Shown here one piece after another: positions 1 to 26,925 of a stretch of DNA of 28,824 nucleotides. The DNA comes from a virus. Taxonomy: Duplodnaviria > Caudoviricetes. The stretch covers positions 1 to 28,824 of IMG/VR virus record IMGVR_UViG_3300029169_000024; one strand, 5' to 3'. Numbering within the stretch: position 1 is the stretch's first letter; each line of letters opens with the position of its first letter. Made by a program: the position numbers and the translations under genes. The notes beneath the pieces are model-generated. The model was not told the origin of the DNA. It saw only the letters and a list, made by a program, of their open reading frames with translations, and did not search any database.

Positions 1-1
1 G

Positions 2-3000
2 TTTCCCAGTCACGATCCCACTGGCCGTTCTAAGCAAATTAGCTGCTTCATTCCCAGTTAATCCAGTTTGGCCAAATCCAAGATCTCCTCTAGCCTGTAT
101 AGAAGAAACCAGTTGTTCAAATATAGACTGAGGTATATTTGTCAAATTATTGGTTAGTAAATTAGAATCAGGATTATCAACTAATTGTTGCAACAGCTCA
201 GTCGGACTAGAAATATTGTTAGATGATATATTTTGAAAAAACTCTGCAAACTGTCTACTGGCCTGTCCTTGAAACAAGGAATTGTTTAATCTAGTCCCTA
301 AGTCTGTTCCACCTTGTGTTTGAAGCGATCCAATAATTCCATTGACTCTATTTTGTAATTGTTGGTATTCTTGTGTTAAAAGATTTAATCTTAAAGAAGA
401 TTTTTGCAATGCATTATTAAAATCATTAGTAAAACCGTTCAAAGATATAATACTATTGCTCAATGCTAACGAATTGCTTTCTGAAGGATCTGCTTCAAAA
501 TTTCTAAGACTTTGTTGTGCAGACAATCTAGATTGTGCAATATTTCGTGCAGACTGTCCAAGTCCAAATCTAGGAGTTATTTCATCAGCAAGAGATCGAA
601 AATTTCCTGCCGATTCTAGACCATTGATACTGCCCGAAGAAAGATTAAAAGCATTTATTCTAGACCGAATTCCAACTAGAGATCCTAGTTCTTGTGTTAT
701 CGAATTATTAGAATTTAATATAGCATCTTGTCTAGATAATCTTCTTTGAAATTCAGACGATCTTTTTTCATCTTCTGAATTTATAGAAGACGTAATTAAT
801 TGATCAATTCCGGTCGATCTTATTGCCTTTACTATAGACTCTTCTAATCCTGTACCTATTATAGAAGATGGATTGTTTTGTACACTAGTAGTTAACGATT
901 GTCTCAAAAATGATAAAAATCTTTCTCGCTCAGCTTGACCTTCTGATGTATTAAATCGTTCTTGTGGCAACGCATTAGTTAAATCTTCTATAAAGCTTGT
1001 TACTAATGCCTGCCCTTGTCCTTCAGCCAAATTGCTTGGATTAATTCTAGAAGTTTTAATTTGAAAATCTCTTGAAACAGAACCTGCCACAGAAGATAAC
1101 GTTGAGAGATCTTGAAGTAAACTTTTATTAGAAGAGCTTAAATTTAGCGAACTTACAATTCCAGAGGTATCGGATCCTGCCAACGATTCAGATCTAAGTT
1201 GTTCAGATATTAATAACGATCTATTTTTAGATATCTGACTAGAAAATGGATCAAAATTTGAATTGCCTGATATAAAAGAAGAACTGGCTGAATTTATTAT
1301 TTGTCTATTAGACGATAATGCAGATTGAATACTGTTTGATCTTACAGTATCTTGTATATCTTGAGACAGAGATCTAAAACTACTTGTTGTTATATCTAGT
1401 GCAGATCTTAAATGATCAACATCTTGTTGAAAATTTTCAAAATTGCTACGTTGTGCAACCAATGTTTCAATCAATAGTTTTCTTGCAACAATCTCTTCAT
1501 CAGTAAAGTTTTTAATTGCATTCTGTGCATTAAACTCATCTCTAAGATTCTGTATTGCATCGTCAAAAGATAGAGATGGATCAGAAGATAGTTCGTTTCT
1601 AACATTTGCTCGTGCTCGTTCGGAAAAAGCTCTAAATCCGTTAGATTGTTTCAACTGTTCTCTAAAATCGTTTTCAACTCTTTGATTGACATCATCAACA
1701 GACGGTCGATCGCTAATAGAATCAAGAAGAGATAGATATCCAGATACTTGTGGTATCTTATTTAAAAAACTACTTTCAATAATTCCACCTTGGGCAAAAA
1801 GTGCATCTAATGTACGAGGAACAGATCTTGCAACACTATTGTCGAATTCCAGTTGTTCTCTAGCTGAATCGGATATATTGTTAAAAAAAGAATCTACTAT
1901 TTTTTTATTATCCTCTTCAAAAGAGCTTATAATAAAAGCACTGTCTATTTCATTTTCAGCTATAATTGAATTTTGTCTAATTCTACCAACTTGATCTCCA
2001 ATAAATGCTCCAGCTCCCGCTCCAACCGCAGTTCCTAATACAGGACTGGCAAACGATCCAGCCACACCTCCAATAAAAGCTCCTGTTGCAGCAGACTGAG
2101 ATCTAGCTTTAGAGGCGGCCACTAGTGCATTAGATCTAGATATCTCTCCTGCATTACTAACTAACTGGCCAGTTTGAGGATCGATTAACGAAGATTGTTT
2201 CTTAGAGTTGGCTGATGCGGTAAGTGCTGATGCTATGGCCAATGGAATCCCTATACTAGCAGCGATTCCAGCTCCTGATTTTATACTAGATGAAAATCTA
2301 GAGCTTGCAATACTTTGAACTCCCGATCTTAAAGTTCCTCTAAAGCCCAATGATTTAGATGCAGCAACTTCATTTTTTCTTGCAGCAATTAATTGCTGTT
2401 CAACTTGACGAAGCTGACTCTCTATGGCAATACGTTTTTTACTGTTTTGAATGTCTAAAGAAGCTAGTGATGACAACTCTTTTCTTCTGACAGATAGTTG
2501 TTGAAGAATCTTACTGGAAGACGCTATAATAGATTTGTTTCTGGCAATTTCGCCAGGTCTATCCGCAGCTGCAATATTTCCTCTTCCAGAAGCAAATGCT
2601 ATATTAGTCTGAGCACCTCGAATTATATTTTTTTGTAACTGTCGTTTTGCTGCAAATTCTGCAGCCAAACTAGCCTTTTGACTATTAAACTGATTTCTAT
2701 CTAAAAGTGGAACCTGTGACAAGCTGGTAGAAATTCCGGCTCTTTGAACATTTAATCTAGCACGTTGTCTTTGAAAATGAGAAAGTGCAACCTTTTTAGC
2801 ATTAATGCGTGAATCAAAACGACCTCTTATACCCGATCTTTCTTGTCTACTAAAGAATGACGGATCTGTAGCTGTATCAGAAATACTTTGTCCCGAACTA
2901 AGAGAAGCGTTTCTAGTATGTAAAAGAGGATTTCTTGAACCTCCTGCTCCTAATATAGATATTCCATCTGCACCACCATGTTTAAATGGTCCGGGATTAT

Positions 3001-4810
3001 TGTTTCTTGTTCCTCCTATAAACCCAGGAATTCCTCTGGCAACACCAAAGGCTAATTTAATAGCTCCTAGTTTAATCAATAATGGCAGCAAAGGAGCAGA
3101 AACTTCTAAAACATCTCCTAGTGAATCTGCTAAACTAGCAACATCCTTGACCAATTGTTTTATATTTTCATCATTAGCTAAAGATCCAAACACTTGTTCA
3201 AATCTAGCACTAATTTTTCCTAATTGAACATCTATTCTATCTTGTCCAATAAAAGCGTCTCTAGCCAAAGAACCTGGTGCAGATTTTTGCAATTCTATTG
3301 CCTTTAAAAATCTACTGTTGTCTCCACCCTTTGCTATATCCTCAAGTAAAGGAATAAGAGCCTTACCTTGTCGAACACCAGAAAGGTTTTGAACTATTTC
3401 ACCTATTTCATCTTTATTAAATTCATTAAATCTTGACCCAACATTTCTCAAAATGTCGGTAACACTTTTTAATTGACCCTGGTCATCTCTAACATCAAAG
3501 CCACCTTTAAAAGTCTCTAAAAACTCAACTACATCTGGACGAATAAGTCTTAATGATATGGTGTTTAATGAAGTACCAACTGTTGCAGCTGACAATCTAG
3601 TTATATCTCTAACGGCTGCAACTGTAGCGGCAAATTCTTCAAATCCTCCTCCAGCAACAGAAAATGCTGCACCACCAGATTTAACAGCAGTAAAAAGGTT
3701 TTCCGCTTCGAATGCAAAGTTTTTAGATAAAATATTTGCAGAATCTAATACCCTAACAGCATCTGTTCCTGCCAAACTAAACTGGTTAAGAGTAGCAATT
3801 GTACCTTCTAGCACATTACTAATGTCACCAAATGTCGCTGCCAATTGAGTTTGTGCCAGCCCTTCAACAACATCTAATATTGCATTGTTGTCACTAAACT
3901 TTTCACCAGATTGAGCCAAAAGTACCGATACGTTCAATAGTTCTCTACCAGACTGTCCGTACTGTCTTGATATTTCAAGTATATCTCTAGAAACAGATCT
4001 GGCCTTGCTTGCATTTCCATTAAAAACCTGAGTAAGTCTATTGATGTCTCTATTTATATCAATTATCGCACTACTTGCAAATCTAGCAGCTCTAGCTATT
4101 TGGAAAAACGCCGAAGCAGGAACTAAATATGCCAACAATCTAGCACTTGTAAATCCAAGTCTTTCACCAAATTCAAATTGATGTGCAGAAGCCTGTTTAA
4201 CTAATTTATTGTGAACCTGAAGTTGTTTATTTGTTTTATCAAGTCCTCCAGAAACAGAAGAAACTGGCTTATTAGAAGCTGTAGAAACAATTCCTTGATT
4301 AACAGACTTTTTTATATTGGATGCCACTGTATTGTTAGGCAGGACCAATTGAGTCTTGATCATTATTGGATTAGCACTAAAGAAAGCCTTTGCTTCTTTT
4401 CGGTACTGCTGTCCATTTCCCTTATTAAATTTTAGCGATCCTAAACTTTTATTTAAATTGCTAATTTCTTTATGAAGATCTTTAAATCCAGATTTCTTAG
4501 GATTGACTGTAATATTGTTCAATCTCTTTTGAAGCTGATCTACTACAACCTTTGTGGAACCTAATTTTATTCCAATCTCAAATTTATTTTTTAATACCTT
4601 ATTAACTTCGGATGCTAAAAATTTTGAATTAACTCCAAGCTTTACTTTGGGGTTAACTTTTGTAACTATATCGCTACGCATTTCTTTAAAAGAACTTTTA
4701 GCAATACGTACTTTTACATCTTTTAGTGAAGCTTCAATACTTTTTCTAAAACTAGAAACATTTCCTGGTATTAAATCAACTTTTAACTGAGGGTTGGAAT
4801 TTGATGGCAT
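2..4810 (-). CDS. Tail tape measure protein (3' end outside window, at least 1603 aa)
   Basis: Absent from the ORF track because there is no stop in the window. Manual translation from ATG 4810 (TAATG overlap with the upstream stop) is open to the window edge: MPSNSNPQLKVDLIPG... It has a TP901-type TMP core (LAQTQLAATFGD...VRVLDSANILSKNFAFEAENLFTAVKSGGAAF...VGTSLNTISLRL...GFDVRDDQGQLKSVTDIL...LSGVRQ) and Gly/Ala hydrophobic segments (GAFIGGVAGSFASPVLGTAVGAGAGAFIG). It follows the tail tube and chaperone genes. Confidence 0.93.
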   Translation of the reverse strand, partial: MPSNSNPQLKVDLIPGNVSSFRKSIEASLKDVKVRIAKSSFKEMRSDIVTKVNPKVKLGVNSKFLASEVNKVLKNKFEIGIKLGSTKVVVDQLQKRLNNITVNPKKSGFKDLHKEISNLNKSLGSLKFNKGNGQQYRKEAKAFFSANPIMIKTQLVLPNNTVASNIKKSVNQGIVSTASNKPVSSVSGGLDKTNKQLQVHNKLVKQASAHQFEFGERLGFTSARLLAYLVPASAFFQIARAARFASSAIIDINRDINRLTQVFNGNASKARSVSRDILEISRQYGQSGRELLNVSVLLAQSGEKFSDNNAILDVVEGLAQTQLAATFGDISNVLEGTIATLNQFSLAGTDAVRVLDSANILSKNFAFEAENLFTAVKSGGAAFSVAGGGFEEFAATVAAVRDITRLSAATVGTSLNTISLRLIRPDVVEFLETFKGGFDVRDDQGQLKSVTDILRNVGSRFNEFNKDEIGEIVQNLSGVRQGKALIPLLEDIAKGGDNSRFLKAIELQKSAPGSLARDAFIGQDRIDVQLGKISARFEQVFGSLANDENIKQLVKDVASLADSLGDVLEVSAPLLPLLIKLGAIKLAFGVARGIPGFIGGTRNNNPGPFKHGGADGISILGAGGSRNPLLHTRNASLSSGQSISDTATDPSFFSRQERSGIRGRFDSRINAKKVALSHFQRQRARLNVQRAGISTSLSQVPLLDRNQFNSQKASLAAEFAAKRQLQKNIIRGAQTNIAFASGRGNIAAADRPGEIARNKSIIASSSKILQQLSVRRKELSSLASLDIQNSKKRIAIESQLRQVEQQLIAARKNEVAASKSLGFRGTLRSGVQSIASSRFSSSIKSGAGIAASIGIPLAIASALTASANSKKQSSLIDPQTGQLVSNAGEISRSNALVAASKARSQSAATGAFIGGVAGSFASPVLGTAVGAGAGAFIGDQVGRIRQNSIIAENEIDSAFIISSFEEDNKKIVDSFFNNISDSAREQLEFDNSVARSVPRTLDALFAQGGIIESSFLNKIPQVSGYLSLLDSISDRPSVDDVNQRVENDFREQLKQSNGFRAFSERARANVRNELSSDPSLSFDDAIQNLRDEFNAQNAIKNFTDEEIVARKLLIETLVAQRSNFENFQQDVDHLRSALDITTSSFRSLSQDIQDTVRSNSIQSALSSNRQIINSASSSFISGNSNFDPFSSQISKNRSLLISEQLRSESLAGSDTSGIVSSLNLSSSNKSLLQDLSTLSSVAGSVSRDFQIKTSRINPSNLAEGQGQALVTSFIEDLTNALPQERFNTSEGQAERERFLSFLRQSLTTSVQNNPSSIIGTGLEESIVKAIRSTGIDQLITSSINSEDEKRSSEFQRRLSRQDAILNSNNSITQELGSLVGIRSRINAFNLSSGSINGLESAGNFRSLADEITPRFGLGQSARNIAQSRLSAQQSLRNFEADPSESNSLALSNSIISLNGFTNDFNNALQKSSLRLNLLTQEYQQLQNRVNGIIGSLQTQGGTDLGTRLNNSLFQGQASRQFAEFFQNISSNNISSPTELLQQLVDNPDSNLLTNNLTNIPQSIFEQLVSSIQARGDLGFGQTGLTGNEAANLLRTASGIVTGK

Positions 4811-5676
4811 TAGGATTTAACTTTGGCTTTGGTTGTGGATTTCTTCTTAACAGATTTACTGCGTTTGGTTGTCCTCTTCTTTTTTTCTTGATCTACTGGC
4901 AATCCAGTTTCATCATCAATAAATGGAGATTCTTCTTCTATTTCTCCAACTATTGATTGTAATTTTTCAAGCAATTCGTCTTGAACCTGTTCAATAGGAG
5001 TGCCATCTCTATCCACAAACTTTCCAGTTACCCTATCTACAAATGATAAATTTTCATCTATATACTTGTATTTCTTAAGCCATTTGTTTTCAGGAAGATT
5101 TTTTTCAAAATCCGAGTCTATACCATATAATACAGACATTGAGATTGACATGGCCTTCTTATAAGAATCTGAGTCTTTATTGGCCTTCATTTCAGAAAAT
5201 GACTCCCAGTGTCTATCTCCAGTAATAGAGTTTCTAGTACATGCATATATAAAATAGTCAGTTTTTTCATTATCGGCTATAGATTCTATAGTAGAGTCGT
5301 CGAAAGACTGTCTTTTTTGCATTAGTTGAACTAACTTTTGTCGTTTATCAGTAATGGCAATTGCAATTTTTCTCCCTTCACTTAGTTTAATGCCACCAGA
5401 TCTAAGTTGGTTTAGTAAGTTATTAATTTCACCATTTATAGAATCTAGCAAATTTTGGTCTTTTTGTGACCACATTCCATTTTCTCTTAAAAAAGAATCA
5501 AGTTCCGATCTTAATAAAGGTCTATTTTTTTTACTTAGTCTTATCAACTCAGCTATTTTGGCAGCATGAACTATATCAGCCTGTTCCATATCTTCCATTT
5601 CAGGCGTTGAAAAAATCAATACAACTTTTTCGCCCAAATTATCTACAATTGTAAATTCCTTAATTTCCATTTCCAT
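4810..5676 (-). CDS. Putative tail assembly chaperone with Lys-rich C-terminal tail
   Basis: 288 aa, helical-looking, immediately before the TMP. GGAG SD upstream. Shares spaced motifs with 5984..7039. Function inferred from position only. Confidence 0.55.
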   Translation of the reverse strand: MEMEIKEFTIVDNLGEKVVLIFSTPEMEDMEQADIVHAAKIAELIRLSKKNRPLLRSELDSFLRENGMWSQKDQNLLDSINGEINNLLNQLRSGGIKLSEGRKIAIAITDKRQKLVQLMQKRQSFDDSTIESIADNEKTDYFIYACTRNSITGDRHWESFSEMKANKDSDSYKKAMSISMSVLYGIDSDFEKNLPENKWLKKYKYIDENLSFVDRVTGKFVDRDGTPIEQVQDELLEKLQSIVGEIEEESPFIDDETGLPVDQEKKKRTTKRSKSVKKKSTTKAKVKS

Positions 5677-5677
5677 A

Positions 5678-5983
5678 TTATCTATCTCCTGTTAAAAATA
5701 CTGTTTCAAATCTTTTTCTGCAAATGTCATGTTCGTCTAGTTCTCTAGATGCATTTCGTAATTGTTGATTTCCAATATTTAAAATATTGGTTCTACATTC
5801 TTCCCACTTCGCTGCTAAAACTTTCTCGTCGCCTGTCAATTCATTTTCATTTTTTCCATGTCCCCACATATGTCCAAAAGCAGCTTCAAATTGGCTTAGT
5901 GGATATATCATAGTTGTATTGATTTTTATGCCTATGATTTTTTTAAGTCTTTCTCTATATTGATCGTTTGGTGTATTTTTCAT
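5678..5983 (-). CDS. Hypothetical protein in tail-chaperone region
   Basis: 101 aa ORF abutting both neighbours (TAA directly followed by ATG at 5984/5983). No recognisable motif. Confidence 0.6.
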   Translation of the reverse strand: MKNTPNDQYRERLKKIIGIKINTTMIYPLSQFEAAFGHMWGHGKNENELTGDEKVLAAKWEECRTNILNIGNQQLRNASRELDEHDICRKRFETVFLTGDR

Positions 5984-7039
5984 TTATACTCTTTCCCTTG
6001 TGTCTTTAGACATTTGTCTATTTTTTTCCATTATAACTCTTTGTTTAACATCGGGCAAGTCAAATTCAGCAACCCTTCCTTTTGTATCTATAGTTTCAGA
6101 TCGTTTTTTAAGCTTAGATAGTGTTTGTTTATCATTTAATTCGTACACATCTTTTGAACCTAATCTATCTGCAGGTACAAACACTTCAGAAGAACCCGAC
6201 GTGTCATTGTATTTATTATTAAGTTGACCTTTCTTGCTTTCTTCTTTTATTGATCTAATCTCATCTTCATACCATTTATCAAATTCACTATCATCGTCTA
6301 TAACAGAGTCATCAGGGGGATTAGAACTATTATAAGCAAAATCATATATTCTGGACCATAATATTAGTGCGTGTTGAAGCTCGGTCATATTTGTTGCACT
6401 ATTATTAAACAGTTCCATATTAGTTTCTTTAGCAGAAAGCCAAAACAGTCTCCACGGATCACAGCGAGCTACCTCTCTAACGATTTCTACATTAGGACAA
6501 AAATCAGTATAGTACTGAACAGTTAGATGGTTGATAAACGATGAATTATTTAGCAAACCAGTACAAGATATATATGCAATACTATTTAATATAATATATT
6601 TTCGTTTTATACATTCTGCAGTATATTCGGCTGTCACAGGTTGGTATTTAGATTTTATAATACTTAAATCATTTTTTTGCTTTTTTAATTCAGCAATAGC
6701 TGAAGCAACTTGTTTAAAATTAGTTTTTTTATATTTAAGTGAAGGTAGAGAGTTTTTTAGTGTTTGTATTTCACTGTTAATTCTAGATAGCTCTATGTCA
6801 TGTTGACTACTCCACAATCCTTCTGTAATCAACAATTCCATTGATTCTTCATGTGTCATTAGGCCATTGCTTATAGCATTTTTATACGACTTTTCATATT
6901 GAAAATCAGCATCATACAATAGAGACTGATCTGGATCATTAATTTCTACTTGATATGTATTACAATTAAAATCAATATTGGCTTTGATTTTACCAAAAGA
7001 TATGCGTCTAATTATTTTAGATCGTTCCTTATAATCCAT
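5984..7039 (-). CDS. Putative tail assembly chaperone (paralog of 4810..5676)
   Basis: Start moved from TTG 7072 to ATG 7039 (MDYKERS; AGGA SD), since 7072 lies in the terminator tail/promoter motif. Directly downstream of the tail tube gene. C-terminal NPPDDSVIDDDSEFDKW resembles T-like chaperone segments (recalled, not searched). Confidence 0.55.
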   Translation of the reverse strand: MDYKERSKIIRRISFGKIKANIDFNCNTYQVEINDPDQSLLYDADFQYEKSYKNAISNGLMTHEESMELLITEGLWSSQHDIELSRINSEIQTLKNSLPSLKYKKTNFKQVASAIAELKKQKNDLSIIKSKYQPVTAEYTAECIKRKYIILNSIAYISCTGLLNNSSFINHLTVQYYTDFCPNVEIVREVARCDPWRLFWLSAKETNMELFNNSATNMTELQHALILWSRIYDFAYNSSNPPDDSVIDDDSEFDKWYEDEIRSIKEESKKGQLNNKYNDTSGSSEVFVPADRLGSKDVYELNDKQTLSKLKKRSETIDTKGRVAEFDLPDVKQRVIMEKNRQMSKDTRERV

Positions 7040-7065
7040 GTTAGTTCCTAATATTCCTATAGTTA

Positions 7066-7071
7066 TATACA
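7066..7071 (-). promoter_or_regulatory. Putative late promoter motif TGTATA
   Basis: TTGTATATAA on the minus strand, about 27 nt upstream of ATG 7039, immediately after a terminator. The same motif occurs in five other gaps. Confidence 0.55.
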
Positions 7072-7095
7072 ATAAAAGCCCGTAAATAACGGGCT
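7071..7095 (-). terminator. Rho-independent terminator after tail tube gene
   Basis: Stem AGCCCGT (7077-7083) / ACGGGCT (7089-7095), 5-nt loop, followed on the minus strand by TTTATT. Confidence 0.8.
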
Positions 7096-7121: not shown

Positions 7122-8129
7122 TTACAGACCTTCAGGATCATGATCGGCTGTAATAGTTAAGAAGTTAAAGTTTTGATAATTATAAGTAGTAACAACAACT
7201 CCACCACCAGTATCTCCACCAGAATATGTTATACTCTGAAGTTTATTTTTAGTGCCCAAGTTGAATATAGTACTATCGGTTAGCTTAACTATAATTTCTT
7301 GATCGGAAATATTTGCAATTTCAGCTAATGCAGAAACTCCATCGCTAGGATCTGTTCCGGCATTAATGACATTGATACTACAATCTACTGATAAAGGATA
7401 ATTTGCAAATCTGTAGTATGGTCTACGACGACCTATCTCAAACAGATCTTCTCGTCCAAGACTAGTTGATATAGATACATCCTGAATATGTGCAGCAAAC
7501 TGTCCATTAGATTCAATGTTGAATCCAGACCCGCCAACATCGGTTATACCGGGTATTTCACTTGGCCAGACACTATGTCCTGATCCCATTATAACGTTTT
7601 CTCTACGTTGTATACCACTAGTTGCAGCAGGACTGTCGGTGCCATCAAAGTGTCCATTGAATGAAGCAGACGATAACCACTCTTTATCATTTCCAACCAA
7701 GGTAACAGATTCGGTAGCATTGCCCTGAACAGGAAGGCTATAATTCATTGAGTTGATATACATGCCTGAACAATAAACCTGTTTAACTGGAACACCAGAA
7801 GAGTTTTCTTGATCATCATCAAAAATTGAAATATACGCATCTACTCTTTGATTACTTCTATTAAGTAAGCTACTAGCAGTTGCCCCTCTGGTAGACATAT
7901 GATATAAAAGAGGATATCCATCTAAAACTTTTTCAGCTTGAATTTCGATATCAGGCAGATTTTCAATATTTTCATAAGTATCTAGCTGACCTAATTCAAA
8001 TACATTTTCTAGATTAAAAGTTGTGTTCATTGACATGGACTGTAAACCATGAATACCAGATGCAGTACCAGTTTGATATGCTCCTAGGGCTAGTTCATGA
8101 AGTGGGTAAAATACTCTAAAGTTAGACAT
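7122..8129 (-). CDS. Major tail (tube) protein with internally duplicated tube domain
   Basis: 335 aa, Ser/Thr/Gly-rich beta protein. Tube-like motif QSMSMNTTFNLENVFELG recurs as QDVSISTSLGREDLFEIG. Strong AGGAG SD, own promoter motif and terminator. Lies between terminator-like gene and chaperones/TMP. Confidence 0.8.
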   Translation of the reverse strand: MSNFRVFYPLHELALGAYQTGTASGIHGLQSMSMNTTFNLENVFELGQLDTYENIENLPDIEIQAEKVLDGYPLLYHMSTRGATASSLLNRSNQRVDAYISIFDDDQENSSGVPVKQVYCSGMYINSMNYSLPVQGNATESVTLVGNDKEWLSSASFNGHFDGTDSPAATSGIQRRENVIMGSGHSVWPSEIPGITDVGGSGFNIESNGQFAAHIQDVSISTSLGREDLFEIGRRRPYYRFANYPLSVDCSINVINAGTDPSDGVSALAEIANISDQEIIVKLTDSTIFNLGTKNKLQSITYSGGDTGGGVVVTTYNYQNFNFLTITADHDPEGL

Positions 8130-10925: not shown

Positions 10926-12737
10926 TTATTGTCTTAGCCAATCTATAAAGTCTTTAGGGTTTATTGTATTATCATATATGTTGTTGTTGCCAATATATTG
11001 AATCAAAGATTTATCAATAATGTTTTGTTCAATAAAATTATTATTAATAGTAACATTGTCTTTATCTTTATTTTCTTTATTAATCAATGGTTCTTCCGCA
11101 GGCCATCTTTCAATAATATTTTTAGTAACACTAATGTTTCCATTGGATACATTGGGTTTTATTTCAACAGCATACCAATTGGTATCAGCGGTTTTATCTA
11201 TAAAGATATTGTTATTAATATAAACCTCGTCAGCTTGTCTAATTGATACAGAAGTCCCTAGTATTACATCGTTAGGAAGAGGTCCTCCGTGATGTGTAAA
11301 TACATTATTCTCAACACGAACTCTATTGTGCAAAATCGAATCTGGATCTCCATTGTTTGGATCTCCTCCGATTGCAAATCCAGATAGGTTTCCAACAAAG
11401 ACATTTTCTTTTACTTCAATATCAGTAGAAAAACCTGGCTTGTCACATCTAATTTTTATTCCAAGGTTGGATCCACGAGAAATTACATTATTTTCAATAG
11501 ATACATTTCTACACCAAGTAATATACATATTATGATTAAATCCAGTACGTTCAGCTCCATCTACTTGTTCATTCCATCCATTGTGATCAAAAATACAGTC
11601 TTTAATGATTAGATTTTTTATTAATTTAGCATAGATTCCTTGACTATGTCCGTTGTTTTTAGGAGAATATGCATTTCGCAAGTCACACTTATTAACCTCT
11701 ATATCTATAATATCGTCTCCAACTCTTTCTCCTAGTCCAACATTGTATGCATAAAATTCTAAAGTTATATTTTCAAACTTTATATCTTCTCCTGCTGCAC
11801 TCCATCTGATTCCAAATTCTCTGGATTGTCCTCCATCAAAGTCGGAAGAATCAGGATCTCGATTGTTGGCATATCCATGCAGATCACGAAACCTAATATG
11901 TCTAATAGGGTCATCTCCATATGAACGAACAAGTCCGGTATCTTCTGCATTAGTTAAAAATTTTGGAAGAGGTAACGACAAATCTCCATAAGAACCAATT
12001 GTCGTCGGATTGTTTTTGGATATTCCAGAAATTTTCCATCTTCCTAATCCTGTATTAAATACAGCACCCCTTTGAAACAAGATCGTTCCTCCTGGTTTTA
12101 GTTCAGATATTTTTGCACGAACATCGTCTCCATGTTTAACTAAAATAGCATCAGATGAAGGAGGGTCAATATCTGGAATTATAATTACTTCTGATTCTTT
12201 AATTAAAATTTCATGATCTATTTGTTTATAACTTTGTGAATCCTTTCTGTTCAATAGTTGTAAAACAATTCTACCCAAAGGAAGGGTGTCTAATTTTGTA
12301 TTTAAAATTAAAAGATCGCTACCTTTTGATATAGTATGTGTAAATTCTTGCACAACCGAACTATTGTCAATAGACCACGCCATAACTAGAACGTCGTGCC
12401 TATCTTTTAGCTCTAGATCTCTTTTTAATTCAATATTTTTATTAGAGCCGATAGAATATTCTATTGCAACATCATTACTAAAAGATGTTATAGGATTTAT
12501 TTCTTCTGGTACATCTGGAATGTCTGGAACATCTGGATCAGAACTATCTTCATTATTTTTTTCAACCAAGTTTTGATATTCTCGTGCAGATACAAGAGTT
12601 TGTGCAATTTTTAATTTTAACAGCCAGGCTTTCCAATTTTCTGTGTCATTATCTGCAAAAGCTTCTGCTCTATGATCATCATAGGCATCTCTTAATTTTC
12701 TTTCTAATTCTTCTATTTCATTTTTAGTCAATGACAT
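10926..12737 (-). CDS. Right-handed parallel beta-helix (pectin-lyase-like) protein, putative depolymerase
   Basis: 603 aa: N-terminal helical segment, PDVPDIPDVP linker, beta-sandwich, PDIDPP linker, then LKPGGTILFQRG and repeated I-x-N-N-x-I/F strands (NVSIENNVI, IEVKENVF, VRVENNVF, VYINNNIF) with GHSQGIY, FDHNGWN, FNHNMYI. Confidence 0.8.
   Translation of the reverse strand: MSLTKNEIEELERKLRDAYDDHRAEAFADNDTENWKAWLLKLKIAQTLVSAREYQNLVEKNNEDSSDPDVPDIPDVPEEINPITSFSNDVAIEYSIGSNKNIELKRDLELKDRHDVLVMAWSIDNSSVVQEFTHTISKGSDLLILNTKLDTLPLGRIVLQLLNRKDSQSYKQIDHEILIKESEVIIIPDIDPPSSDAILVKHGDDVRAKISELKPGGTILFQRGAVFNTGLGRWKISGISKNNPTTIGSYGDLSLPLPKFLTNAEDTGLVRSYGDDPIRHIRFRDLHGYANNRDPDSSDFDGGQSREFGIRWSAAGEDIKFENITLEFYAYNVGLGERVGDDIIDIEVNKCDLRNAYSPKNNGHSQGIYAKLIKNLIIKDCIFDHNGWNEQVDGAERTGFNHNMYITWCRNVSIENNVISRGSNLGIKIRCDKPGFSTDIEVKENVFVGNLSGFAIGGDPNNGDPDSILHNRVRVENNVFTHHGGPLPNDVILGTSVSIRQADEVYINNNIFIDKTADTNWYAVEIKPNVSNGNISVTKNIIERWPAEEPLINKENKDKDNVTINNNFIEQNIIDKSLIQYIGNNNIYDNTINPKDFIDWLRQ
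12511..12537. repeat. 3 x 9-bp tandem repeat encoding Pro-Asp-Val/Ile linker
   Basis: acatctgga-atgtctgga-acatctgga on the + strand, inside the beta-helix gene (PDVPDIPDV). Confidence 0.7.
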
Positions 12738-12747
12738 ATCGCATTCC

Positions 12748-13614
12748 TTATTTTAACTTACCAAAACGATTTATATAAATATTTAATGTTTCAACTGCTT
12801 GAGGATCAGAAAAAGTGTCTCCTGAATTAGACCAAATACCAATTTTTTTAATATTTAAATTTTGAAAAATATCACACAATATTGTTGCTTGCTCTGGACT
12901 AGCAGGAATTACATTACTTTTATTTCCATGGTCTTGTGTCATATGCCAAACCCATGGAATAAATGGCTTTCCACTATCTTCAGCCATTTTCATCAATTGA
13001 GGAATCCAATCTTCAAATAGATGCCATCTCTCTGGAGTGTCAGGCCATTTAGTTGGACCATTTAGAGATTCATAACATACAGGAGCTAGTGTATGAGTAA
13101 CATCTTCTATTCCAATTTTATTGGTTGGACCACGATTTATTTGCTGTAACATTGATGTATAATTTGCCCTCATTATTTTTATATTTTCAATTTTCTTTAT
13201 TGAACGATTGATTCCTTCTTTAATTCTCTTCTCGTGTGTAAAGATATATGGATTACTATATGGCATCCCCCACATAATTCGCTGTATATGCCAGTACTTT
13301 GGATGTTCTTCAAGCTTTGTAAAAAAGTAAACCACAGCATTACGCCATGCAATTGCACCTTTTACTGTACCTCCATGCATCTCTATATCACAAACAATGG
13401 GTTTGTTATTTTGTTCTGCATCATCTAGTGCATTTAATAATCTTCTACGAGGATCAAATCCTTCAATAAAAGCATTGTCTATCTCTTTATTTGATGGAGT
13501 CTCATTTTCTCTATTGTGTGCTTGAAATTCATTAGGAAATATCATACGAACCATGCGAATATCTGCATTAGAATATAAAGCTGCAAGGTTATGATTGTGT
13601 GTCAAAATAGGCAT
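12748..13614 (-). CDS. Putative TIM-barrel glycoside hydrolase (GH56/hyaluronidase-like motifs)
   Basis: Start moved to ATG 13614 (AGGAG SD; removes the overlap with the upstream gene), 288 aa. Ordered motifs IVCDIE (DxE), LAPVCY, KPFIPW, IGIWS parallel the GH56 IDWE / LYPSIY / PVxxY / GIVIWG series. Confidence 0.5.
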   Translation of the reverse strand: MPILTHNHNLAALYSNADIRMVRMIFPNEFQAHNRENETPSNKEIDNAFIEGFDPRRRLLNALDDAEQNNKPIVCDIEMHGGTVKGAIAWRNAVVYFFTKLEEHPKYWHIQRIMWGMPYSNPYIFTHEKRIKEGINRSIKKIENIKIMRANYTSMLQQINRGPTNKIGIEDVTHTLAPVCYESLNGPTKWPDTPERWHLFEDWIPQLMKMAEDSGKPFIPWVWHMTQDHGNKSNVIPASPEQATILCDIFQNLNIKKIGIWSNSGDTFSDPQAVETLNIYINRFGKLK

Positions 13615-13654
13615 ATTTACAAAACTCCTAAATAATTTATAATTACATTTTATA

Positions 13655-15166
13655 TTAAAAAAGTATGCCAGTAGGAATATATAATCTAACATCTATAGCA
13701 AAATGAATTAGCTCTGCTAGTTTAACATTTCCTGCATTAGAAAGATGAATACCATCTCCAGAATCATAAATAGCAGGAAGAGTGTCTTCAGTTGTATCTC
13801 TCATTGCTGATTCAGTTTCAATAATTCTAATTCCGTTAGATGAACACCACGTTCTAGTCCACCCTCTCATGTCTTGTGCTTTTGTTTTTTGTCCAGAATC
13901 TCTACCTTCCAAAGGAGTTCCAGTAGTTAAAATAAGCACAGCTCCTATTGAGTCTGTATGAACTTTTAGGTCATCTAAGTATCCTGAATATGTAACTTCA
14001 TTCCATGATTTTTTACAATCATTTGCTAAAGTGTTAAAAACTACAATATCTGGCCTTGCTACTAAAAGAACTTCAGTTTCTTCACTATCTCCTCCAGTAG
14101 TAATTCTAAATATAGATTCTCCAACCCAGTCTTCTATATCTTTACCTGAAACTCCTAAAGAAATCACGTCCTGTCCAACTAATAAACCAATATCATTAGC
14201 CAAAGTCCAAGAGTAGTTGTCAGAATTAGGCCATGATTGTAAGCCTCCATAAATAAGGGATGCAGGATTGCTTCCAGCCATTATAGAGTCTCCTACTAAT
14301 GCAATTCTAGCAGAAGAGGACATTATAGGAACTATATTTAAAATAGAAGATTCATGCACTTCATCAAACGATGATGAAAAATTAAACGGCCCGTCACCTG
14401 ATAAATCAGACGAAGATCTTATTAATCTCACACCATGGTCTGGCTGAGTCCTTCCGATTGACCAAGTGTATCCACTCGAATTTGCTGCAAACGCAGAATT
14501 AACAGTTAATGAAATTTCACTATCAACAGAAGTTATTTCATGATATCCATAAACAGAATTATCTCCACCACTATAAATTATAAGCCACATGTTTGATGTG
14601 ACACCATCTGAAATAAAAGTTGAAGAGGCATCAGAAAAAATAGAAGAAGATGTAACACCAGATGTGCCACTTGATTTCTCTCCTATCATAGCAATAGATA
14701 GCTGAGAAATATTTATGTCAGAATCGTTAGTTTCCTGAAGATACATTCCTGTTTGATCTCCTCTATTAACAGATACAGCAGATGAAAATAATAAGTCAAG
14801 ATAATTATTATCAGGTTCCCATCTAGAAGCTACTATTTGTTCTGATCGTCCTCTTACATTTTTAGAATTTATATTATCATCACCCTTTAGCCAAATAAAA
14901 CGTATGTCTCTTAGTGTTTCAGAAGTTACATCATAAGGAGAATATATTCTAACTCCAATAACACTGCCATCATAAGGAATTCGAAACTTATCTCCTAATT
15001 GTAAATATAGCCTATCTCTATTATCATCAACTCTAATAACAGAAATATGATCAATAATAGATCTAGCTAAATGGGCAGGCATTGTTGGTATGCCAGAAAT
15101 TCCATTAAGTTCACTATCCAAGGGTACTGAATTTCCATATATGGAAATAAGAACTGCTTCGCTCAT
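13655..15166 (-). CDS. SGNH/GDSL hydrolase (putative carbohydrate esterase) with N-terminal beta domains
   Basis: 503 aa. Block I ALVGDSI, block II LGVSG, block III LAND, block V DGIHLS (DxxH). GAGGT SD. Confidence 0.85.
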   Translation of the reverse strand: MSEAVLISIYGNSVPLDSELNGISGIPTMPAHLARSIIDHISVIRVDDNRDRLYLQLGDKFRIPYDGSVIGVRIYSPYDVTSETLRDIRFIWLKGDDNINSKNVRGRSEQIVASRWEPDNNYLDLLFSSAVSVNRGDQTGMYLQETNDSDINISQLSIAMIGEKSSGTSGVTSSSIFSDASSTFISDGVTSNMWLIIYSGGDNSVYGYHEITSVDSEISLTVNSAFAANSSGYTWSIGRTQPDHGVRLIRSSSDLSGDGPFNFSSSFDEVHESSILNIVPIMSSSARIALVGDSIMAGSNPASLIYGGLQSWPNSDNYSWTLANDIGLLVGQDVISLGVSGKDIEDWVGESIFRITTGGDSEETEVLLVARPDIVVFNTLANDCKKSWNEVTYSGYLDDLKVHTDSIGAVLILTTGTPLEGRDSGQKTKAQDMRGWTRTWCSSNGIRIIETESAMRDTTEDTLPAIYDSGDGIHLSNAGNVKLAELIHFAIDVRLYIPTGILF

Positions 15167-15179
15167 AAAAAAACCTCAC

Positions 15180-15959
15180 TTAATTAAATATTCTTCCAGA
15201 ACCATAAACTACAGAACCTATTCTCCACAGAGTAACAATAAGAATATCGCTACTAGCTGCTGGTGTAACTGGAGGTATTCCTCCGTCCCACTTATCTACA
15301 TCAGACCATGTTATAGTTCTCTGTGCTGAGCCATCATAAGATAAAACAAGCATTATGGCTAACCCATCAGATTCATTGCTGTGTGTAATGGTAGTATCTT
15401 GATCTAATATGCCTGTATGTCTTGATCCTAAAATCCAATTTATCGTTCTGGACGCTCCTAGGTTTCCTATATCAGCAACATCTGATGATTGTATCGTTGC
15501 ATTTAATTTTATTATTCCTGTTCCATTAGGGTCTAAAACTATATCTCCATTTGAATTAGATATTATATCATTTCCATTAACATCTAAATCTCCTCCGAGT
15601 TGCGGAGTAGTATCTTCAACAATATCGGACATCCCTCCTCCAGAAGAAAGATTGGACCAAACAGCACTTCCTGCTGAAGAGTCTAAGCAAACATAGTACA
15701 CATTATTGTGATTATCATGCCATTTAGACCATTGACTAAATGACTGGCCTAGTGCTGCCGTATCATTTTCATCATTATTAACACTTGGTGCAGTTCCAGA
15801 AACTGAGTAAACACTTCCGGTTCTTTTTGACAATTCAATAAAGTTTTCTTGTATAGACTGTCCGCCTATTCCTTCTAAAATAGATAAAGGTACAGACTCT
15901 CCAGGGTTTGCCAATACTTTTATTCCACTTAAATTTAATATATCAAAATATGAACTCAT
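15180..15959 (-). CDS. Putative virion fibre / adaptor protein
   Basis: 259 aa with modules familiar from phage fibres: APSVNND...SKW...YVCLDSSAGSAVW, DTTPQLGGDLDVNG, and C-terminal RTITWSDVDKWDGGIPPVT...DILIVTL. Confidence 0.65.
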   Translation of the reverse strand: MSSYFDILNLSGIKVLANPGESVPLSILEGIGGQSIQENFIELSKRTGSVYSVSGTAPSVNNDENDTAALGQSFSQWSKWHDNHNNVYYVCLDSSAGSAVWSNLSSGGGMSDIVEDTTPQLGGDLDVNGNDIISNSNGDIVLDPNGTGIIKLNATIQSSDVADIGNLGASRTINWILGSRHTGILDQDTTITHSNESDGLAIMLVLSYDGSAQRTITWSDVDKWDGGIPPVTPAASSDILIVTLWRIGSVVYGSGRIFN

Positions 15960-24856: not shown

Positions 24857-25234
24857 TTAGTACCTCAATCTAGGATTCTTTGGCTTCCATTTTTGTCTTA
24901 TCTTTTTAATAATATTTTTAGACTTAGTTGTTTTGTCTTTTTGTCCTTTTTTCTTATGATACTTTATAGTATTTTCTTCTACTATTTTTTTAAAGCGAGC
25001 TTGAAACTGATCTTCTATTCCATTTATTTCTTCATGGACTTTTTTAGAAAGAGTTATTCCATTGCTAACAACATATCTCAAATGAGGAGCGTCTGCCCAT
25101 CTTACTATATGATGAGCTTCAAGTTCTCCACCTTTCATTCCAGTATGACAACATGTAAAACCATCTCTTGAAAACACTGCCCATCGCCAAGCTTTATATT
25201 CTTTGCTATTGTAATCTTCTCGATCAGGAGACAT
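24857..25234 (-). CDS. HNH endonuclease
   Basis: WRWAVFSRDGFTC...LEAHHI...NGITLSKKVH. 125 aa with basic tail. Confidence 0.85.
   Translation of the reverse strand: MSPDREDYNSKEYKAWRWAVFSRDGFTCCHTGMKGGELEAHHIVRWADAPHLRYVVSNGITLSKKVHEEINGIEDQFQARFKKIVEENTIKYHKKKGQKDKTTKSKNIIKKIRQKWKPKNPRLRY
25038..25057. repeat. 20-bp direct repeat, copy 1 (copy 2 at 26405-26424)
   Basis: acttttttagaaagagttat is identical in both HNH genes (encodes ITLSKKV). Confidence 0.8.
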
Positions 25235-26315
25235 TTGTGCCTACGCTTTCTAGTATCCCACAATCATAACGAACCATGGTTTCTACTAAGTCGTAAAAAC
25301 TGTAATTAGGAATCCATCCAAGTTCTTTATTAGCTAATGATGGATCTCCAAGCAATAGATTTACTTCAGCTGGTCGATAAAATTTAGGGTCTATTTCTAC
25401 AAACTCTGACCAATCTTCAATGCCTATTACCGAAAAAGCTTTATCTAAAAACTCTCTAATACTTCTTGTTTGTCCAGATGCAAGCACATAGTCTTTGGGA
25501 TCAGTTCTCTGTAACATCATCCACATACCACGAACCATGTCTCTAGCGTCACTCCAATCTCGCTTAGAATCTAAGTTTCCTAATTTTAAAGTGCTGATAA
25601 GACCAAGGTCAAGAGCTTGTTTAAAACCTAAGTCGGTAGGAACTAGACTGTTTAATCCATCTTCAAACATAGTATCAATATTTTTTTCTACTATTTTAAA
25701 AGACTCTCCAATATAATTAGTTATTTTTCTAGTTACAAATTGTTTAGATCTTCTAATTCCTTCATGATTGAAGAGACGGCCAAAACAAGCATATAGTCCA
25801 TATGACTGTCTATAAACCTTTACTAAATCTTCTGAAGCACATTTTGACGCGGCATAAGGGCTAACAGGATTAGTAGGAGTTTTTTCTGTCTGCGGTGTTT
25901 CTAAAACTTCTCCATAAACTTCTGAAGTAGAAGCTTGATAAAACTTACAATCTGGAACAAACTGTCTTATAGATTCTAAAAAGTTTAAAGTTCCTAAACT
26001 ATTAATCTCAAAAGTAGCGATAGGCTGAGTCCAAGAGGCTGAAACAAAAGACTGAGCAGCTAAATTATATATTTCATCAGGCTTATACTTTCTTACCACT
26101 CTGGATATACTTGCCATATCTACTATATCGGCCTCTTCAATTACAAAATCATCATACGTTTTACATTTAGATAAATTTTGATAATCAGGAGAACTACTTC
26201 TTCTTTCTAGTCCAATAACAAAATAATCTTTTTCTAATAATAACTCTGCTAACCAACTAGCATCTTGTCCTTTGATTCCAGAAATTATAGCTGTTTTTTT
26301 ATTACGCACTTTCAT
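25224..26315 (-). CDS. gmd: GDP-mannose 4,6-dehydratase
   Basis: Start moved to ATG 26315 (AAGGA SD). Motifs ISGIKGQDASWLAELLL, PDEIYNLAAQS.V, FYQASTSE, SPYAASK, LFNHE, FVTRKIT, LGNLDSKRDW, YRPAEVNLLLGD. Confidence 0.95.
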   Translation of the reverse strand: MKVRNKKTAIISGIKGQDASWLAELLLEKDYFVIGLERRSSSPDYQNLSKCKTYDDFVIEEADIVDMASISRVVRKYKPDEIYNLAAQSFVSASWTQPIATFEINSLGTLNFLESIRQFVPDCKFYQASTSEVYGEVLETPQTEKTPTNPVSPYAASKCASEDLVKVYRQSYGLYACFGRLFNHEGIRRSKQFVTRKITNYIGESFKIVEKNIDTMFEDGLNSLVPTDLGFKQALDLGLISTLKLGNLDSKRDWSDARDMVRGMWMMLQRTDPKDYVLASGQTRSIREFLDKAFSVIGIEDWSEFVEIDPKFYRPAEVNLLLGDPSLANKELGWIPNYSFYDLVETMVRYDCGILESVGTNVS

Positions 26316-26316
26316 A

Positions 26317-26925
26317 TTAATCCTTTCTATACTTTTCCTTAAGTATTTCCTTTGCTTCTTCAAAACTATGTCCCGAACTAACTAGTTGATGTAGTTCAGT
26401 ATGTACTTTTTTAGAAAGAGTTATGCCGTTGGTCACATCGAATGCATATTCAGGATTCATATTTTCAGCCTTATGCATTATATGGTGAGCTTCTAGTTCG
26501 TCAGAAAGTCCCGATATCGTACATTTATAACCATCTCTATGCAGAACTTCTTCTCTCCATTCTTTATATTGAGTTTGACTAGTCACCCAATTAGAAAATG
26601 TACTAATAGACTCTCCCTTTTTCCATGAAGGGTGTTTCGATCCTTTAAAATATGCAAACTTGCACAATTCAGAACAAAAACTATTTTTAGTTCTATCTAC
26701 TTTACTTTTAGATCTTCTAAAGAATGCACTACAGTTTGTACACATACATGTTATTCCTGTAACTTCAATTCCGTTACGAGGAAACTGATGATTATACATC
26801 TTAGCTAATTTTCTTATATATGGACGACTAAGTCCAGTAAGTCTTTCAATTTCTCTTTGAGAAATTCCATTCATCATTAATTCATATGCTTCTTGTTTTT
26901 CAGGCTCAGATACTATTCTAGGCAT
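26317..26925 (-). CDS. HNH endonuclease with N-terminal HTH and Cys4 zinc finger
   Basis: GISQREIERLTGLSRPYIRK (HTH); CTNC...FCSELC; HPSWKKG; RDGYKC...LEAHHI...NGITLSKKVHTELH. Confidence 0.85.
   Translation of the reverse strand: MPRIVSEPEKQEAYELMMNGISQREIERLTGLSRPYIRKLAKMYNHQFPRNGIEVTGITCMCTNCSAFFRRSKSKVDRTKNSFCSELCKFAYFKGSKHPSWKKGESISTFSNWVTSQTQYKEWREEVLHRDGYKCTISGLSDELEAHHIMHKAENMNPEYAFDVTNGITLSKKVHTELHQLVSSGHSFEEAKEILKEKYRKD
26405..26424. repeat. 20-bp direct repeat, copy 2 (copy 1 at 25038-25057)
   Basis: Identical 20-mer in the second HNH gene. Confidence 0.8.

Follow-up and report, generated by a model that had tools for sequence, protein, structure and literature searches.

Two described tail systems lie closest to the locus reported here. 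The tape measure protein (TMP) of the lactococcal phage TP901-1 carries Trp/Phe repeats of 11 or 18 residues, which occur in about 5% of TMPs, and the phage stays infective when an aromatic repeat is replaced by alanines (PMC5099701). The TMP of phage DT57C, which is ejected with the DNA and contacts it through its N-terminus, is described as a three-stranded coiled coil that makes no evident periodic contact with the wall of the tube (PMC10713586). TMPs determine how long the tail becomes, and in T5-like phages the coiled coil of three chains rests unattached inside the tube and has to leave it before the DNA. Here we analyse the TMP encoded at one end of the IMG/VR virus record IMGVR_UViG_3300029169_000024 (Caudoviricetes; positions 1 to 28,824, this whole stretch of 28,824 nucleotides being called the window) together with its relatives. 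The protein is a TP901-family TMP and hence of a known kind, but its composition is a variant for which we found no description: Met, Trp and Tyr are almost missing, and Met/Trp/Tyr-free TMPs were not found in the full-text literature searched, supplements and most subscription journals being outside reach.

Composition of the tape measure protein and its relatives

The open reading frame (ORF) at 2..4810 of the minus strand comprises 1603 codons and is open at its 3' end, with no stop before the contig ends. Its product is a TP901-family TMP, scoring above the cut-offs of both family models (Table 1; the TIGR01760 core was scanned on the database copy P0002) and matching two PHROG TMP families. 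P0002 is the full-length protein (1775 residues; W0 C0 M5 Y5 H8) and is identical to the window TMP at 1597 of 1598 aligned residues. A contig of run X1 equals window positions 21-6000 with zero differences and diverges before base 21, so that the last 7 or so translated residues of the window ORF are altered by foreign bases; P0002 and X1 may however share source data with the window and are thus not independent of it. Fourteen bases of window 1-20 recur in run X2, where they form a dangling end at 5035, and we take these 20 bases to be a likely leftover of a random-amplification primer.

A first-pass annotation of the window had reported a near-absence of Trp, Cys, Met, Tyr and His from this protein, and our recount over the 1603 codons reproduces its numbers exactly: no Trp, no Cys, three Met (residues 1, 44 and 150), five Tyr (136, 228, 284, 1025 and 1482) and seven His, while Phe is common (85). 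The gene has a GC content of 35%, and the five residues together make up 0.94% of the protein as against 5.3-21.4% in the 25 other window ORFs tested, which use them normally as had been stated (binomial p for depletion: Y 2e-19, M 4e-13, W 5e-10, C 2e-8, H 7e-6). It had also been offered as independent support that six antisense ORFs all lie in the frame where TAA and TAG can arise only opposite Tyr codons. All six are indeed in that frame, which has no TAA, no TAG and 44 TGA, but since a TAA or TAG there requires a sense codon beginning with TA, the observation restates the lack of Tyr.

The proper yardstick is other TMPs, and here the picture changes for two of the five residues. Our main panel consists of 18 TMPs of cultured phages, extended to 24 by six more; it is of limited size and was selected by hand from lists of hits, the Microcystis phage MaeS TMP was taken as annotated although its match starts upstream of the ORF, and a stretch of HRTV-4 was left out because it holds no TMP. 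In the 18 TMPs the five residues sum to 2.3-8.3% (mean 6.7), and in a further outside comparison of 11 distant hits (P0030-P0040) to 4.8-9.0%. Cys is lacking in 15 of the 18 and 21 of the 24, bearing out the remark that TMPs are often Cys-poor, and His averages only 0.58% in the 18. Against expectation from these 18, the window TMP has 2 Met besides the start Met where 47.7 are expected (p 1e-18), no Trp where 20.2 are expected (p 1e-9) and 5 Tyr where 29.2 are expected (p 4e-8), and Lys is likewise reduced (79 vs 105, p 0.004), whereas Cys is ordinary for a TMP (0 vs 0.7, p 0.49), as is His. In the window TMP, only Met, Trp and Tyr of the five are therefore abnormal; typical TMPs of the family share the scarcity of Cys and His but not that of the other three. 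Together these three account for 0.47% of the window TMP and for 4.5-7.9% of 23 of the 24 cultured TMPs. The sole cultured TMP below 4.5% is that of Roseobacter phage RDJL Phi 2, at 2.2% (L102:5318-8407; 1029 residues, W0 C0 H0 M16 Y8 K11 R69), a cultured marine phage unrelated to the family which displays the trait in milder form and provides a ready experimental model. The TMP of Dinoroseobacter phage R5C (L203:3492-6548) has 1.9% Lys and a single His with normal Met and Trp, and Lys loss can consequently happen without the other losses.

The depletion is a graded family trait and not special to the window genome. Homologue and locus searches gave 153 TMP sequences, of which 24 shorter than 1200 residues were left out, and dereplication of the remaining 129 removed 31 near-duplicates to leave 98. 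Met, Tyr and Trp sum to less than 1% of the first 1500 residues in 20 of these 98, and the window TMP, ranking 13th, is not the most extreme. The TMP of L002 has W0 C0 M1 Y5 H1 K39 R163 in 1649 residues, that of P0006 has W0 C0 M2 Y1 H0 in 1736, and the putative TMP of L156 has W2 C0 M1 Y2 H0 K28 R234 in 2173. Three members of the 20, L149, L155 and L156, lack any TMP-family hit, are TMPs by position only and were excluded from the tree; their ORFs (L149:13504-21114, L155:13499-20158 and L156:13459-19977; 2170-2540 residues) are extremely low in the same residues, give no PF10145 hit and hardly match the family core. Extreme members are 24-50% identical to the window TMP in their best-aligned stretches, while the close relatives P0013 and P0015 have 64 and 51 Met; relatives whose tube protein is 57% identical (P0013/L001) carry 3-4% Met in the TMP. 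In the conserved core, Trp, Met and Tyr sum to mostly 0-2% nearly throughout the family as compared with 6.3-8.9% in distant outgroup TMPs, and the TIGR01760 core of the window TMP holds a single Tyr and no Met, Trp or Cys. On a tree of 95 cores, 17 tips with extreme values over the next 900 residues need 10 changes, as compared with 15.8 +/- 1.0 when shuffled, and the extreme trait is thus clustered yet repeatedly gained or lost. A relative of the sister group is encoded in 568 IMG/VR stretches.

That selection acts on the protein follows from the reading frame, as the triplets have been lost in frame only: out of frame, TGG, TGY, TAY and CAY occur at or near shuffle levels in all four genes examined, and ATG near shuffle level in three, being low in L002 (31 vs 46). 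Some 13% of single-base amino-acid changes would yield Met, Trp, Tyr, Cys or His, but among lineage-specific core residues these account for only 3 of 319 in seven extreme proteins and for 42 of 733 in the 11 other proteins, a contrast that is partly circular because the groups were set by composition. At positions occupied by Met in relatives, Leu (34%), Ile (19%) or Phe (14%) stands in the extreme proteins; Trp becomes Phe (66%), Tyr is kept (32%) or becomes Phe (31%), and Lys is kept (25%) or becomes Arg (19%) or Gln (12%). The Tyr-to-Phe and Met-to-Leu replacement that had been anticipated is thus seen, although changes of Tyr and Trp to Phe and of Met to Leu or Ile are also the default conservative ones. 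The effect is furthermore confined to the TMP. On the 104-kb contig of L002, the five residues amount to 0.36% of the TMP, 4.6% of the next-lowest of 103 ORFs and 12.0% in the median, and in the 167-kb G005 to 0.32%, 2.4% and 11.6% (114 ORFs), so that a search for the same bias in further ejected proteins, which had been suggested, came out empty among these two sets of ORFs. The second-lowest ORF of G005 encodes 205 residues (L196:7330-7944, equal to G005:C1:157330-157944) and overlaps the region of a tRNA-Leu call. Across 73 loci and the window, the TMP trait is not followed by the tube protein (Met, Tyr and Trp 5.7 vs 6.1%), the terminator-like protein (9.5 vs 9.2%) or the capsid protein (7.6 vs 7.2%), and the few correlations with it in other genes are small-sample or of opposite sign. 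The strong selection on the TMP proposed at first is accordingly supported as selection that is specific to this protein and operates at the protein level.

Possible causes of the depletion

In the 13 most extreme TMPs (24,821 residues), picked on Met, Tyr and Trp only, frequencies relative to the 18-phage panel are 0 for Cys, 0.02 for Trp, 0.06 for Met, 0.09 for Tyr, 0.17 for His and 0.63 for Lys, while the remaining residues stay at or above 0.78 and Phe (1.31), Gln (1.33) and Arg (2.0) are raised; depletion is hence limited to Trp, Tyr, His, Met and Cys, with Lys in addition. Relative to 52 less-biased family members His stands at 0.26 and Lys at 0.58, neither played any part in picking the 13, and their fall fits a reading in terms of oxidation. 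Independent contrasts over 95 TMPs point the same way (Y-H 0.32, H-K 0.30, Y-W 0.26, Y-K 0.23, M-W 0.22 and, of opposite sign, K-R -0.44), the values being based on a FastTree tree with an ad hoc tip-noise term and uncorrected for multiple tests. The window TMP itself has 33 Lys in its residues 1-250 but only 3-6 in each 250 beyond residue 1000, where Arg is steady at 17-20. Lys is a target of hypohalous acid and the usual cross-linking partner. Photochemical protein damage in surface waters has been treated in a review, reportedly by Nelson and co-authors. In such waters, oxidants generated by photochemistry mainly attack the Trp, Tyr, His, Met and Cys of proteins, and halogen radicals in seawater concentrate damage on electron-rich groups (PMC7064263). 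The hydroxyl radical is said there to prefer Arg, Lys, Pro and Thr, and this route can be dismissed since Arg is raised in the extreme TMPs.

We therefore tentatively suggest, giving it slightly less than an even chance, that selection against oxidative damage, be it by photo-oxidants or reactive halogens, excludes Met, Trp and Tyr from the TMP over its entire length. The virion would wait in the environment while oxidants attack TMP side chains, and with some three very long chains and no spares the TMP would present a single-hit target, in which a single cross-link or a handful of oxidised side chains might jam ejection and sliding or spoil membrane insertion. Capsid and tube subunits, present in many copies and requiring buried aromatics for folding, could not or need not be purged, whereas a TMP tolerant of substitution could shed its reactive residues cheaply, and Lys, being both cross-linking partner and halogen target, would yield to Arg. 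Somewhat less likely is the wider claim that a large family of uncultured aquatic siphoviruses repeatedly evolved a redox-inert TMP with a 15-letter alphabet because, in mats, salt pans and sediments, a single oxidative hit on the ejection chain kills the virion; TMP composition would in that case mark the duration and oxidant load of a phage's wait outside its host. Three relatives that are extreme or nearly so could be traced to a habitat, which favours the oxidation reading: the L002 assembly derives from the uppermost centimetre of a hypersaline mat (PMC6737245), the dataset of L156 figures in a list of mat and halite metagenomes from Namib salt pans (bioRxiv 2022.02.18.481119), and L114, with 0.58% of the five residues over a partial 856 residues, is from wetland sediment (PMC6461988).

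Several observations weigh against this reading. As mentioned, His is ordinary in the window TMP (7 vs 9.4 expected, p 0.28), so that the oxidation hypothesis of the first-pass annotation fits the residue ranking of the family, His and Lys included, but not Cys and His of the protein for which it was devised. The contrasts are modest, with M-Y at 0.17 (p 0.09) and W-H at -0.01, and the tube and capsid proteins show no matching depletion in spite of their greater exposure. Animal proteomes under oxidative load moreover avoid Cys only, while Met rises (PMC10967345). Habitat was resolved for only three of 18 hand-picked dataset identifiers besides L002, PMC7449369 and PMC9802188 yielding none. 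The members from a clear-water lake dataset (L014, L048 and L083; bioRxiv 392027) are intermediate, with 2.0-4.4% of the five residues, and normal values of Met, Tyr and Trp are found in the TMPs of Nitrincola phage 1M3-16, whose source is a hypersaline, alkaline lake (6.3%), of two Microcystis phages (6.4 and 7.8%) and of Dinoroseobacter phages (4.5 and 5.6%). Since these unrelated phages of sunlit or saline settings have normal TMPs, habitat alone is insufficient and lineage or host must matter.

One alternative dispenses with damage chemistry and supposes that the tail and host envelope of this family oblige the TMP to shun Trp, Tyr, Met and His, which would cling to glycans, to membrane interfaces or to the wall of the tube, and to build its coiled-coil core from Leu, Ile and Phe. 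We regard it as unlikely. It would explain why the TMP alone is affected and agrees with the dispensability of the aromatic repeat markers of TP901-1 (PMC5099701), and the nearly family-wide poverty of the core in Trp, Met and Tyr, which extends to the lake members, indicates that the trait is partly ancient and lineage-bound. It is however in poor agreement with the rise of the bulky and sticky Phe and Arg and with the lack of any Phe periodicity, the spacing histogram being flat over the 13 extreme TMPs. Furthermore, the almost complete disappearance of Met from 1600-2200 variable residues, down to the start Met alone in L002 and L156, is hard to derive from packing when relatives with a 57%-identical tube have 3-4% Met.

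A cause on the side of the host is about as unlikely in our view, though it would account for the insufficiency of habitat as a predictor. The TMP enters the cell envelope and is the sole part affected, so an oxidising or halogenating envelope (by way of a haloperoxidase or a photosynthetic membrane), a sensor or a protease might impose the trait, which would then follow host lineage, and the 10 changes among 17 extreme tips could be host switches. The host of RDJL Phi 2, Roseobacter denitrificans, is an aerobic anoxygenic phototroph, but phages of other phototrophs carry normal TMPs. No cultured relative gives a host, and the labels of the metagenome-assembled genomes (MAGs) that contain relatives conflict. 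Evasion of a protease or sensor, as had been proposed, fits particularly badly with the rise of Phe, Leu and Arg, and we know of no protease or sensor that reads Met, Trp, Tyr, His and Lys yet spares Phe, Leu and Arg.

Neutral causes, such as mutation bias, avoidance of DNA motifs, expansion of a repeat poor in these residues, a lack of tRNAs or the avoidance of start codons inside the gene, are very unlikely: a proxy for AT-richness does correlate with the trait (rho -0.40 over 98 TMPs), but it shares Phe and Ile with the replacements, the triplets persist out of frame as described above, TTG starts are not avoided, tandem or internal repeats were not found in the TMP, extreme TMPs occur in loci of 35-45% GC, and equally long neighbours on the L002 contig (1737 and 1331 residues) have 144 and 84 Tyr. 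Biosynthetic economy, that is the shedding of costly or sulfur-bearing residues from a long exported protein, is more improbable still and largely refuted by the normal composition of capsid and tube, since even though mean residue cost is 20.0-21.4 in extreme TMPs against a panel mean of 21.8 and correlates with Met, Tyr and Trp content (rho 0.46), Arg is raised and so is Phe, which ranks second in cost, the capsid protein retains 11 Met, 13 Tyr and 4 Trp, and with assumed copy numbers the saving is about 4,000 units against some 7 million for the capsid (about 0.05%). Size exclusion was likewise rejected on account of the raised Phe and Arg, halophilic or thermophilic adaptation because Asp is unchanged, Glu is up 1.2-fold and Gln and Asn are up, and recoding because neighbouring genes use every codon.

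TMPs of 1600-2200 residues that keep the start Met alone and hardly any Trp, Tyr, His or Cys, while only 25-50% identical where they align best, imply that the side chain is costly wherever it is placed. A cost so independent of position suggests that long-tailed virions, or their ejection step, have a vulnerability that has gone unnoticed. If selection against oxidative damage is the cause, a molecular target of environmental phage decay would be named for a widespread family; if host chemistry or a host sensor is the cause, the trait would instead be a clue to the hosts.

Neighbouring genes and phage context

The features of the TMP region are collected in Table 1. By position, the three ORFs between tube protein and TMP are likely to encode tail-assembly chaperones, and the glycine-zipper-like stretch may possibly be a membrane-inserting segment.

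Table 1. Features of the tape measure region, in window coordinates
Feature	Coordinates	Strand	Remarks
Non-phage contig end	1..20	.	From comparison with a contig of run X1
TMP gene, 5' part	21..4810	-	About 1596 genuine codons out of 1775 residues; W0 C0 M3 Y5 H7
Six antisense shadow ORFs	342..4790	+	By-product of lacking Tyr codons, not genes
Glycine-zipper-like stretch	1982..2104	-	Residues 903-943; Pfam score under cut-off
TIGR01760 tape_meas_TP901 core	3062..4075	-	Residues 246-583; 87.5 bits vs cut-off 28.8
PF10145 PhageMin_Tail domain	3383..3982	-	Residues 277-476; 75.5 bits vs cut-off 33.2
Basic N-terminal 250 residues	4061..4810	-	K33, R9, net +28; contains all three Met
Three ORFs, tube-to-TMP interval	4810..7072	-	288, 101 and 362 residues; W+C+M+Y+H 7.3-11.9%, normal
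Major tail tube protein	7122..8129	-	Two-domain fold of T5 pb6 / DT57C / P74-26; normal composition

The tube protein was modelled from an alignment of 81 sequences with a pLDDT of 89.4 (34.7 with a three-sequence alignment), and the top nine Foldseek matches of the model are tail proteins of SH-Ab15497, T5, DT57C and P74-26 (E 3e-11 to 1.4e-8), whereas its sequence profile found no match in the PDB. As judged from this predicted fold, the window phage is a T5-like long-tailed siphovirus. The gene order of tube, three ORFs and TMP is kept in L001 and L002, and capsid and terminase genes lie upstream of the region.

The window represents a linear virus record of 18% completeness, complete relatives measuring 143-180 kb, and the runs that carry its DNA are labelled aquatic metagenome; run X3 has only a small share of window DNA and is not usable as evidence of habitat. 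A tblastn search of 50,697 phage records with the TMP core and the capsid protein revealed no cultured relatives, a single-protein scan of IMG/VR gave zero matches, and the capsid protein is without match in the assembly containing L002. Relatives have been binned into MAGs labelled Promethearchaeota, Clostridia and Balneolaceae, a conflict that indicates mis-binning, and the 104-kb family contig inside a Promethearchaeota (Asgard) MAG (G001:C5:1-104353, which includes L002 and L007-L012) is probably mis-binned, although an archaeal host is conceivable. This contig has many sugar-modifying genes and two tRNAs (Arg and Gln).

In the window, three to four accessory genes at 10926-15959 separate the head-tail adaptors from the capsid gene, their products being a repeat-rich protein of 603 residues, a 314-residue protein of no assigned kind, a GDSL/SGNH esterase-like protein of 503 and a fibre-connector-like protein of 259, and in L002 the slot is occupied by other genes. 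A gene for GDP-mannose 4,6-dehydratase (gmd; 25224-26363), with an HNH nuclease on either side, lies amid the packaging genes and is resembled by a gene in G005; a role in glycosylation of virion or DNA is possible. The sister group, whose TMPs match only distant TMPs, includes proteins of 4,200 to more than 5,700 residues in phages of 100-230 kb (L024, L036, L042, L050, L078 and L084), implying very long tails or extra domains.

Comparison with known systems

The window TMP shares with other TP901-family TMPs a core above both cut-offs, the lack of Cys, low His, the place after tube and chaperone-like genes, and a long sequence rich in Ala, Ser, Leu and Gln. The TMP of TP901-1 however has 27 Trp and 31 Met in 937 residues, whereas that of the window, with no Trp and three Met, is twice as long. 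The Trp/Phe repeats of 11 or 18 residues are not found in it, but as they occur in so small a fraction of TMPs they are not required for membership. The modelled tube shares with T5-like tails (T5 pb6/pb2, DT57C and P74-26) the two-domain fold of a pseudo-hexameric trimer at an identity of 8-14%, and the basic N-terminus of the TMP is, by analogy, likely to be its DNA-facing end and would fit the DNA contact seen in DT57C. The TMP of RDJL Phi 2 (Xiamenvirus) likewise lacks Trp and Cys, has no His, is low in Tyr and has Lys replaced by Arg, but it is unrelated beyond the TP901 core and differs in its 16 Met and a GC content of 58%. Proteins stripped of particular residues are known elsewhere, as in flagellins free of Cys and Trp, sulfur-stripped phycobiliproteins and cheap extracellular proteins. 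Cost selection is furthermore reported for gene transfer agents (PMC9765227). These cases resemble the present one in the selective loss of residue types from one class of protein, and they are explained by export or cost. In the phages described here, on the contrary, Phe and Arg become more frequent, proteins of high copy number are untouched, and five to six residue types are lost together.

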